Sequence record: MT533174.1
DNA length: 64,000 nucleotides
Source: Escherichia phage CJ20
Direction: 5' to 3' (one strand)
In this document: positions 479 through 59,770 of the stretch, in pieces
How positions within the stretch are numbered: the stretch's first letter is position 1
How the letters are laid out: every line of letters starts with the position of its first letter
Translations under genes and position numbers: made by a program
Notes under the pieces: model-generated
The model's database searches: none
What the model saw: the letters and a program-made list of their open reading frames with translations, nothing else
Told to the model about the DNA's origin: nothing

Positions 479-686
479 CAAACACCATGAAGTTGAAGAA
501 GAAGCTTATAAAGAGCTTCAGAAACTGGTAGGGCAGAATATGTCTCCTGCTCTTATCAACAACCTGGCTGCACTGCGCAATGATATCAACGAACGATACA
601 AGGGCGAATATTATGTTGAATTCGTTCCGCTGACTGAAGTCATTGACCGATTTATCGTTAATGTCAAGGTGCATACCGTCCATTAA
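471..686 (+). CDS. Hypothetical small early protein
   Basis: 71-aa ORF overlapping stop of previous ORF. Confidence 0.45.
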   Translation: MYNKHHEVEEEAYKELQKLVGQNMSPALINNLAALRNDINERYKGEYYVEFVPLTEVIDRFIVNVKVHTVH

Positions 687-711
687 CGCTTTAAAAATTT
701 TATGTTATAAT
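685..711 (+). promoter_or_regulatory. Middle-promoter-like element (MotA-box-like CGCTTTA, 12-nt spacer, TATAAT) followed by GGGGTCTAGG
   Basis: Member of a repeated motif family (see findings). Confidence 0.4.
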
Positions 712-757
712 GGGGTCTAGGTCCTTTGGATACCCCAATAACTAAGCGAGAAAAGAA

Positions 758-1038: not shown

Positions 1039-1067
1039 GTTTACTTTCACCACGGATGGTGTATAAT
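1039..1067 (+). promoter_or_regulatory. T4 early-type promoter (GTTTAC -35, 17-nt spacer, TATAAT -10)
   Basis: Motif read directly upstream of ORF 1097. Confidence 0.5.
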
Positions 1068-1096
1068 GAATTTCATCAACACATGAGGAAAACAAA

Positions 1097-11743: not shown

Positions 11744-12034
11744 ATGAAATCATCTTTTCGCTTTAATGGTCAGGAACTGGTAGTTGAGAATGTTATCCCG
11801 GCTTCAGAAGAGTTTGACAGCGCGGTGGGTAATGAACTGCGGCGCGTGTTTGGCGAAGATAAGAAGTTTGACCTTCGCCCTGTTGAAAACTTTGTAAATT
11901 CTGAACAAACAGAAAATATTTTTAATGGTGTAGTAACTGGGCAACTTGAATCTGAAGCACCAATTGCAATTACAGTATTTGTTAAGAAAGAAGCTGTCAT
12001 GACTGCAACAGGTTTCATTTCATTCCGCAAATAA
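11744..12034 (+). CDS. Hypothetical protein (alt-adjacent)
   Basis: ATG 11744 with SD GAGGA; early promoter-like GTTTACA at 11684; terminator follows. Confidence 0.5.
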   Translation: MKSSFRFNGQELVVENVIPASEEFDSAVGNELRRVFGEDKKFDLRPVENFVNSEQTENIFNGVVTGQLESEAPIAITVFVKKEAVMTATGFISFRK

Positions 12035-18914: not shown

Positions 18915-19304
18915 ATGAATATAAACAAAATGTATAGCGATGTATCTCCTGACTTGTCAATGAGTTGGGATAAAGACGTTGCTAAAGTAACTGGCGCAAG
19001 GTCCGTTAAGAACAGCCTTCTGGGAATAATCACCACAAGAAAAGGGTCAAGGCCTTTTATGCCTGAATTTGGATGTGATATAAGTAATCAGCTTTTTGAG
19101 AATATCACTCCATTAATCACAGATACCATTAAACGCAACATCGTCTCCGCGGTGCGGAACTTCGAACCGAGGATAAGCAATCTACAGGTTGCAGTTGTCC
19201 CTATGTATGATGATAACTCCATTATCGTAACGGTTCAGTTCAGCATTGTTGATGACCCTGATACCCTCGAACAAATCAGGATTCAGCTAAGTCAAAACGG
19301 TTAA
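18915..19304 (+). CDS. 25: Baseplate wedge subunit (gp25, lysozyme-fold)
   Basis: 129 aa; strong similarity to recalled T4 gp25 (SLLGIITTRKGSRPFxPEFGCD, VRNxEPRI). Confidence 0.9.
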   Translation: MNINKMYSDVSPDLSMSWDKDVAKVTGARSVKNSLLGIITTRKGSRPFMPEFGCDISNQLFENITPLITDTIKRNIVSAVRNFEPRISNLQVAVVPMYDDNSIIVTVQFSIVDDPDTLEQIRIQLSQNG

Positions 19305-19340
19305 TGCTTTAATTTTATGGCTGTATAATGGTTCTAGACC
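19303..19340 (+). promoter_or_regulatory. Middle promoter (MotA box ATGCTTTA, 12 nt, TATAAT) plus conserved GGTTCTAGACC, upstream of uvsY
   Basis: Motif. Confidence 0.55.
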
Positions 19341-19357
19341 CTTACATTGGATACATT

Positions 19358-24045: not shown

Positions 24046-24050
24046 CCCTT

Positions 24051-24090
24051 TTTGCTTCAAATAAAAATGCGGTATAATGGTTCTAGACCC
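24051..24090 (+). promoter_or_regulatory. Middle promoter (TTTGCTTCA, 13 nt, TATAAT) plus GGTTCTAGACC, upstream of rnlB
   Basis: Motif. Confidence 0.55.
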
Positions 24091-24174
24091 TTTGTGACTA
24101 TTAATTCCTTTCAGAGAAAGAAAGTATAGTGGGTCTAATTTATAATGATATTTATAACATCAAAGTGAGAGATT

Positions 24175-34086: not shown

Positions 34087-34138
34087 TAAGGAATCCTCTT
34101 TATAGACACAGGTCGCGCGAACGCGTCCCTGATGCATG

Positions 34139-34146
34139 TATTTATA
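34139..34146 (-). promoter_or_regulatory. Late promoter core TATAAATA upstream of gene 19
   Basis: Octamer on - strand about 53 nt upstream of the homology-supported gp19 ATG. Confidence 0.45.
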
Positions 34147-34204
34147 CTAGGTAATATGATTCATCATCTCAAGATAATGGCTTCCCAGAATCAACCACAG
34201 GAGT

Positions 34205-34255
34205 CCGTAGAACCGATTATGCTTTTATTTATAACACTGTATAATGGTTCTACGG
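34205..34255. promoter_or_regulatory. Palindromic element: MotA-box/TATAAT motif on + strand, TATAAATA on - strand (34226-34233), enclosed by 10-bp inverted repeat
   Basis: CCGTAGAACC (34205-34214) / GGTTCTACGG (34246-34255); TGCTTTTA 34220-34227 and TATAAT 34240-34245 on +. Confidence 0.4.
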
Positions 34256-34290
34256 TTTCTAACTGATTAATTCATTCTAAGCGATGATAA

Positions 34291-59685: not shown

Positions 59686-59720
59686 TCTATTATCGGTCAG
59701 TGTTATTGGTAAGGACAAAA

Positions 59721-59759
59721 GGTCTAGAACCATTATAACACTGATTGGTTTAAAGCAAA
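59721..59759 (-). promoter_or_regulatory. Middle-promoter-like repeat on - strand (TTTGCTTTA, 12 nt, TATAAT, GGTTCTAGACC) pointing antisense into gene 2
   Basis: Reverse complement of + 59721-59759 matches the motif at 19303 and 24051. Confidence 0.4.
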
Positions 59760-59770
59760 CAAGGTGCACT

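Follow-up and report, generated by a model that had tools for sequence, protein, structure and literature searches.

Sequence conserved from the -10 element to +8 in a positionally conserved subset of MotA-type middle promoters of T4-like coliphages

The MotA/AsiA-dependent middle promoters of phage T4 follow the consensus (a/t)(a/t)(a/t)TGCTTtA - 12 +/- 1 bp - TAtaaT (Hinton 2010, PMC2988021), and they are the textbook case of sigma appropriation, with a consensus taken to end at the -10 element. The sequence between gene 25 and uvsY of Escherichia phage CJ20 raises the question of whether the promoter does end there, and of what any further conserved sequence is for. In the 64,000-nt stretch of this genome that was analysed (record MT533174.1; hereafter the window), an initial annotation had described at this position, and at four others, a MotA box, a spacer of 12-13 nt and TATAAT followed immediately by a conserved, palindromic tail, and had suggested that the tail might be a transcript 5' hairpin, a processing site or a binding site for a lineage-specific factor. 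The window phage belongs to the T-even genus Gaprivervirus, with 96-97% identity to vB_EcoM_VR26, VR25 and TH15 (to VR26 over 4 kb). Its orientation is reversed relative to the VR26 numbering, so that the normal early/middle direction of transcription is the plus strand of the window. The five sites, S1 to S5, and their parts are as follows.

684..727 (+): S1, tailed middle promoter 5' of a cd.3-like ORF (ATG 758; PHROG matches), with transcription into the ORF
684-693 (+): S1 MotA box TAACGCTTTA, then a 12-nt spacer
706-711 (+): S1 TATAAT, then the discriminator GGGGTCT at 712-718
719 (+): S1 predicted +1 A, then the initial transcribed sequence GGTCCTTT at 720-727 (GGGGTCT-A-GGTCC)
19302..19343 (+): S2, the flagged site, between gene 25 (stop 19304) and uvsY (ATG 19358), with transcription into uvsY
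19302-19311 (+): S2 MotA box TAATGCTTTA, then a 12-nt spacer
19324-19329 (+): S2 TATAAT, then GGTTCT at 19330-19335
19336 (+): S2 predicted +1 A, then GACCCTT at 19337-19343
24050..24092 (+): S3, tailed middle promoter after a 24.2-like ORF and 5' of rnlB (ATG 24175), with transcription into rnlB
24050-24059 (+): S3 MotA box TTTTGCTTCA, then a 13-nt spacer
24073-24078 (+): S3 TATAAT, then GGTTCT, the predicted +1 A at 24085 and GACCCTTT (GGTTCT-A-GACCC)
34217..34259 (+): S4, orphan tailed promoter in the 153-nt gap between gene 19 (tail tube, -) and gene 18 (sheath, -)
34217-34226 (+): S4 MotA box TTATGCTTTT, then a 13-nt spacer
34240-34245 (+): S4 TATAAT, then GGTTCT, the predicted +1 A at 34252 and CGGTTTC
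59718..59760 (-): S5, orphan tailed promoter in the gap between gene 2 (DNA end protector, +) and gene 3 (+)
59760-59751 (-): S5 MotA box GTTTGCTTTA, then a 13-nt spacer
59737-59732 (-): S5 TATAAT, then GGTTCT, the predicted +1 A at 59725 and GACCTTT

All five sites lie where they had first been placed, and the T4 middle-promoter anatomy ascribed to them was borne out: each combines a MotA box with a GCTT core, a spacer of 12 nt (S1 and S2) or 13 nt (S3, S4 and S5), a perfect TATAAT and, directly after it, GG(K)TCTA, and S2 is the positional ortholog of T4 PuvsY. The MotA box deviates at S1, with C for T before GCTT, and at S4, with T for the final A, both within the tolerated variation described for such boxes (PMC2988021). 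The genes motA and asiA are absent from the 64-kb window; both are encoded by VR26, the closest complete relative, and by JS98. In the tail, S1 has an extra G and GGTCC replacing GACC, and S4 (GGTTCTACGGTT) misses the last two positions of the consensus first proposed. Transcription from S4 would enter gene 18 in antisense and that from S5 would enter gene 2, also in antisense and against the normal early/middle direction, and there is no conserved ORF 3' of either site; a 23-codon ORF downstream of S5 was considered as a conserved small ORF and set aside, as it is kept in neither VR26 nor VR25.

The repetition is far above what chance would give. The exact 17-mer TATAATGGTTCTAGACC is common to S2, S3 and S5 (three copies) and, with up to three mismatches, was observed four times in the window against a shuffle mean of 0.12, a count that none of 100 shuffles reached. 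The degenerate pattern TATAATGGKYCYA gave four matches where 0.03 were expected, and GCTT-N15-TATAATGG gave three where 0.01 were expected. The 11-mer alone, with up to two mismatches, was not enriched in the window (15 found, 10 expected); the signal is the tail joined to a -10 element. No further copy of MotA box plus tail was found within the window beyond the five. Candidate MotA-box/-10 combinations near 2123, 8001 and 63213 have no tail, nor has an early-type promoter at 1062, so that within the window the tail marks a subset of promoters. A degenerate TATAGTGGGTCTA was also seen at 24125-24139 (+) (TATAGT-GGGTCT-A-AT), 40 nt 3' of S3. This copy has no MotA box and is not kept in VR26, and pairing is possible between its GGGTCT and AGACCC, the predicted 5' end of the S3 transcript (fold z = -1.7). 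TATAATGGTCTAG at 19568-19556 (-), inside uvsY in antisense, lacks a MotA box upstream and probably arose by chance.

The tail had been described as palindromic, and where transcription begins bears directly on that description. When the 58 mapped T4 middle promoters (Table 1, PMC2988021) were aligned at their starts, those of PuvsY (115371), PnrdC.7 (53325) and P34i (153011) fell on an A after TATAAT plus 6 nt, in the contexts TATAAT-GAATCT-A, TATAAT-GGTTCT-A and TATAAT-GGTCCC-A, respectively. By analogy, transcription from the window sites is predicted to begin 7 nt past the -10 element, on the A of TCT-A. This predicted +1 is the centre of the palindrome, so that just one half of it would be transcribed. 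The palindrome GGTTCTAGACC is itself imperfect: its symmetry is real in TCTAGA and the outer G/C pairs and is limited to them, and the second halves of S1 and S4 diverge and are not palindromic. The proposal of a 5' hairpin in the transcript can be discarded, because the start splits the palindrome and because the hairpin that it could form, of 4 bp and about -2 kcal/mol, is no better than those of shuffled sequences. The five predicted leaders (+1 to +60) likewise gave fold z-scores of -1.7 to +1.7, i.e. no structure beyond chance, and there was no Rfam match at the gathering score on either strand of the whole window. Across 36 family members the mean score for direct repetition was 3.67/6, as against 2.87 +/- 0.14 in shuffles, the mean inverted score was 2.25/6, and a 5-of-6 palindrome was confined to the uvsY and rnlB sites of Gaprivervirus. 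As judged from these alignments, the palindromy is incidental and the near-palindrome is only the Gaprivervirus version of what is usually a direct repeat. We therefore rejected a palindromic operator for a dimeric DNA-binding protein, the dyad symmetry not being conserved among family members.

How widely the tail is distributed was examined by a looser scan of the T4, VR26 and JS98 genomes for the full pattern, which was found at 5-8 promoters per genome among approximately 35-55 MotA-type candidates. Tailed promoters are present in T4, VR26 and JS98 alike in the srd/modA and gene 2/3 gaps (both clockwise, and antisense to modA and to gene 2, respectively), at nrdC.7, at nrdD, at uvsY and within gene 34 (the internal promoter of oriG); in the 18/19 gap and upstream of rnlB they are present in VR26 and JS98 and absent from T4, and upstream of cd.3 they are present in VR26 and absent from T4 and JS98. 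Tails that match exactly or nearly so were found in the complete VR26 genome only beside TATAAT, the exact copies all abutting it. The ortholog of S1 is at VR26 135054 (-), and this copy is Gaprivervirus-specific because JS98 and T4 have no intergenic gap at that place. At the uvsY promoter a related tail was present in 26 of the 27 loci sampled, from several genera, the exception being a locus with no MotA box; a metagenome scan with gene 25 as anchor yielded a single contig. S3 has orthologs at VR26 108860 (-) and JS98 109893 (-; GGGTCT-A-GGTCC), and the T4 promoters at this position, PrnlB and P24.3, are without the full tail. Those of S4 are at VR26 98028 (-; GGGTCT-A-AGCTA) and JS98 99757 (-; GGTTTT-A-GGTTCT), and the T4 18/19 gap has no tailed promoter. 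S5 is conserved in VR20, VR25 and VR26 (VR26 71891 (+)), in JS98-like phages (JS98 74902 (+)), in two other lineages and in T4-like phages (T4 -10 at 75988+); the only sampled lineages without the 2/3-gap promoter are those in which genes 2 and 3 leave no gap. Beside S4, comparison of VR26 97952-98844 with window 34138-34290 revealed in VR26 an extra ORF of 684 bp, gp19.1, which separates gene 19 from the 18/19-gap promoter; the window lacks it, and the indel borders the S4 MotA box.

In T4 itself the tailed promoters are PuvsY (oriF), PnrdC.7, P34i (oriG) and PnrdD, together with two uncatalogued clockwise candidates, which are predictions, with a MotA box, a -10 element and a tail (NC_000866; -10 at 11885-11890 (+) and 75988-75993 (+)). 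The first of these candidates, in the srd/modA gap, is antisense to modA and back-to-back with the srd early promoter, and has orthologs at VR26 11690 (+) and JS98 11207 (+); the second, antisense to gene 2, is the counterpart of S5. The two transcripts would begin almost alike, with AAGTCC(C)TTCCATT. Both are absent from the published list of 58 promoters, and the RefSeq and GenBank T4 records carry no promoter features. About 6 of the 58-60 T4 middle promoters are tailed, and approximately 90% of the mapped ones are without a tail, which rules out the tail as a generic feature of all middle promoters. Nor is it specific to the lineage of the window phage, since the motif occurs at several T4 promoters, in JS98 and in other genera at orthologous positions. 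What did stand was the claim that the tail lies outside the T4 consensus: it is a real and conserved extension of a promoter whose published consensus does not contain it.

Alignment of 35 non-redundant family members defined the extent of the tail. Conservation takes in the MotA box, a G-G at -14/-13, the -10 element and the discriminator and runs on to +8, beyond which it falls to background. G was found at -6 in 34 of the 35 sites and at -5 in 29, T at -3 in 30, C at -2 in 26, T at -1 in 29, A at +1 in 29, G at +3 in 24, C at +5 in 19, C or T at +6 in 29, T at +7 in 26 and T at +8 in 23, of which only the values from +2 onward are independent, as family membership was defined by the -10 element and the first half of the tail. 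Written in general terms, the element reads TATAAT-RRNYYY-A-RRNYYY-TT, the second half being mostly a direct repeat of the discriminator, as in GGTTCT-A-GGTTCT and GGTTCC-ATAA-GGTTCC of JS98 and GGGTCC-AT-GGGTC of other lineages.

Part of this sequence is not peculiar to middle promoters. Early-type promoters of VR26 and JS98 also have G-R-N-Y-Y-Y-A after the -10 element, and so the untranscribed half of the tail is something that strong promoters of these phages have in general; the tailed middle class is set apart by the G at -5 and a transcribed segment of its own. The early-type promoters have the form GTTTAC/GTGTAC - 17 nt - TATAAT, with an example in the window at 1040-1080 (+). Their start regions are lineage-specific (TATAAT-GAYCCY-A-TCAACTA in VR26, A-YGGATTA in JS98), and it seems that, in each lineage, homogenisation of the sequence next to the promoter affects more than a single class. 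In the tailed class, the transcribed half (+2 to +8) is 56% identical between sites within a genome, as against 39% between different sites of different genomes (exact permutation P 0.014-0.026), a difference that comes from three genomes and is suggestive, not decisive.

Lineage-specific versions of the transcribed half that are common to unlinked sites of one genome would be expected if the segment from -6 to +8 were the operator of a phage DNA-binding protein that switched the subclass on or off in time and co-evolved with it in each lineage. Conservation of about 14 bp centred on +1 would suit such a site, as would the internal repeat symmetry, direct in most lineages and inverted in Gaprivervirus. 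The change from direct to inverted between related phages would, however, be unusual for the site of one conserved oligomeric protein; moreover, the upstream half is found in early promoters as well, the tail is never found away from a -10 element in the VR26 genome, and no candidate protein was identified. We regard such an operator as unlikely.

Homogenisation could also have come about with no function at all, if the copies descended from one promoter cassette and were kept alike by short-patch gene conversion in a recombinogenic phage. The transcribed half is no more alike between orthologs than between paralogs (0.43 vs 0.43), as conversion would have it; the lineage-specific starts of the early promoters suggest that promoter-proximal homogenisation may be general; and S4 borders the indel in which gp19.1 is present in VR26 and absent from the window. 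Against this, the spacers between MotA box and -10 element are wholly different among the copies, so that the shared tail is no leftover of a recent duplication and a conversion tract would have to be restricted to some 20 nt, flanked by very short stretches of homology. T4, JS98 and VR26 have promoters at the same positions although their proteins are 50-85% identical, and the pattern of conserved and free positions resembles selection. Of the explanations considered, conversion of a functionless tail appears to us the least probable.

The transcribed half might instead act in the RNA. The first 8-30 nt could be a signal at the 5' end that affects stability or processing or that contacts purine-rich sequences, of the form A-R-G-N-Y-C-Y-U-U followed by a G-poor, C-rich stretch. 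Conservation does reach +8, the stretch from +8 to +30 is G-poor and C-rich in comparison with other T4 middle-promoter leaders (P 0.003-0.007), and leaders share the short motifs CCAATAAC, ATTAATTC and AAGTCC(C)TTCCATT. But the most strongly conserved part of the tail, -6 to -1, is untranscribed, the leaders have no more structure than chance provides, with no Rfam match in the window, and no common RNA-level task is evident, given that four of the positions have no downstream ORF and the others yield ordinary mRNAs. A role of this kind, and with it the signal as written, seems to us quite unlikely. As to where the short motifs lie, CCAATAAC occurs 15-25 nt into several tailed leaders (window 733-740 (+) and 59709-59702 (-); T4 PuvsY twice) and as CAATAAC in the JS98 2/3-gap leader, and ATTAATTC is common to the leaders of S3, S4 and the VR26 site upstream of rnlB, the VR26 srd/modA site having TTAATTC.

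Several further features of the gaps were noted. A conserved box, GATAATAGAT(T)A, lies some 32-43 nt into orphan transcripts (window 59694-59683 (-), the 2/3 gaps of T4 and JS98 and the 18/19 gap of JS98); on the opposite strand it directly follows a late-gene stop codon, as TAA-TCTATTATC, and contains -10-like hexamers. A terminator-like hairpin, GCCCAG-TCG-CTGGGC with a T-rich run, is situated at 59603-59589 (-), inside gene 2 in antisense and approximately 125-135 nt 3' of the predicted S5 start; it has no equivalent at that position in T4 or JS98 and is therefore probably due to chance, and the idea that a small antisense RNA starts in the 2/3 gap and ends at a terminator of its own was rejected on the same ground. 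Inverted repeats of 6-8 bp bracket the -10 element and tail in the 2/3 gap (window 59744-59738 and 59701-59695 (-)), differing by lineage (Gaprivervirus TCAGTGT/ACACTGA, JS98 AGCCAGT/ACTGGCT, T4 CTGTTG/CAACAG); repeats of such size are not rare by chance, and these may be chance too. On the sense strand of the 2/3 gap no consensus RNA pairs were predicted.

The company that the tail keeps is a separate matter. T4 oriF (uvsY) and oriG (gene 34) each consist of a middle promoter and a downstream unwinding element and are primed through R-loops (Kreuzer and Brister 2010, PMC3016281), and the oriF primer RNA is the uvsY transcript according to the T4 annotation. Both of these promoter-dependent R-loop origins (oriF = PuvsY, oriG = P34i) are in the tailed subclass, as are all four orphan or antisense MotA promoters (srd/modA, 2/3, 18/19 and 34i), and with them every antisense middle promoter. 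This association suggests a function beyond promoter strength. One form of it would be a mark of promoters for replication primers and non-coding RNAs (R-loop origins, anti-late RNAs), with the tail keeping the nascent RNA on its template. The membership of oriF and oriG, the contrast between four of four orphan or antisense promoters with a tail and approximately 90% of sense promoters without one, and the fact that the T4 clockwise candidates at 11.9 and 76.0 kb face oriA and oriE, 3-5 kb downstream, are all in keeping with it. However, A+T content downstream of the tailed promoters equals that downstream of 54 untailed mapped T4 promoters (0.68 vs 0.68) and is high in both sets, so that there is no distinctive unwinding element, and an A+T-rich element as the mark of the class was rejected. 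A pyrimidine-rich, G-poor early transcript would disfavour stable RNA-DNA hybrids, PnrdC.7 points away from oriC, and the tail of P34i is constrained by the gene 34 coding sequence on the opposite strand. Furthermore, R-loop formation at oriF needs no specific sequence, no motif is common to the origins and oriE depends on an early promoter (PMC3016281). We thus consider it very unlikely that the tail serves to hold primer RNA on its template. A wider version, in which -6 to +8 would be the recognition signal for those MotA promoters that make primer and antisense RNAs, read by a co-evolving phage factor, seems improbable as well, if slightly less so. It would cover oriF, oriG and RNAs antisense to modA and to the late genes 2, 18 and 34, and it would assign the T4 candidates at 11.9 and 76.0 kb to oriA and oriE as the primer promoters that these origins lack.

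The reading that we favour lies at the level of the promoter itself. In E. coli, a G-rich discriminator is preferred and read by region 1.2 of sigma-70, and the start has a pyrimidine at -1 and a purine at +1. Our working hypothesis, to which we give a probability of roughly 55%, is that the five sites are MotA/AsiA-dependent middle promoters and that the tail is the extended core promoter of a subclass conserved in position across T4-like coliphages; the activity of the window promoters is inferred from orthology. The conservation from the MotA box to +8 fits the part of a promoter that RNA polymerase holds during initiation, in support of an extended core promoter. The subclass would have the form MotA box - 12/13 nt - (T)GG - TATAAT - GGKYCY - A - nGnCYTT, with a tail made up of the discriminator (-6 to -1), the start A and the first eight or so transcribed bases, and would act in cis on the host RNA polymerase. 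Non-template G at -6/-5 may stabilize the open complex via sigma-70 region 1.2, the start point may be fixed by the run of pyrimidines ahead of the A, and the conserved initial transcribed sequence may tune the step from initiation to promoter escape; these kinetic effects are proposals. Several points tell against an extended core promoter: the lineage differences in the transcribed half are not predicted by contacts with an unchanging E. coli polymerase, a direct repeat of the discriminator beyond the start site is not known to serve initiation, and the link of the tail to orphan, antisense and R-loop origin promoters points to more than promoter strength. Should the tail do no more than set that strength, its value would be that of a useful refinement of promoter prediction in T4-like genomes and little else. 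For T4 itself, a further outcome of this study is the prediction of two MotA-type antisense promoters, both clockwise and unannotated.

In the literature searched, which took in few of the subscription-journal papers on T4 promoters and VR phages, we found no description of the tail extension, nor any relevant analysis of VR7 or JS98 promoters. The extension adds modestly to a known system, at sites that are ordinary in kind. Among known systems, the PeSL cassettes of RB49-type phages (early promoter plus stem-loop), which Arbiol and co-workers reportedly presented in 2010 as mobile regulatory modules, resemble the tailed promoters in that a short promoter-bearing sequence is repeated at several intergenic places, at least one of which, S4, borders an indel. 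The window sites differ from them in being of MotA type, in having no stem-loop or terminator and in occupying orthologous positions rather than hyperplastic regions; a mobile cassette of PeSL type was accordingly rejected, on account of the MotA box in place of a -35 element and the absence of any conserved terminator or stem-loop downstream. With the discriminator and start elements of E. coli sigma-70 promoters the tail has in common the G at -6/-5, the pyrimidines from -3 to -1, the A at +1 and a start 7 nt after the -10 element, but those elements end at about +2, and neither the lineage-specific +3 to +8 segment nor the direct repeat is part of them. S2 lies at the position of T4 oriF, both origin promoters, oriF and oriG, carry the RRNYYY-A tail, and P34i, like S4 and S5, is antisense with no ORF to express; the tailed promoters differ from these origins in having no distinctive A+T-rich element 3' of them. 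The tailed promoters also resemble the T4 middle promoters at large, with their GCTT-core MotA box, 12-13 bp spacer and sigma-70 -10 element, preceded in many members by TGn/GG, from whose published consensus, ending at the -10 element, the tailed subclass departs by a further stretch of about 14 bp (-6 to +8) that is conserved in approximately 10% of them.
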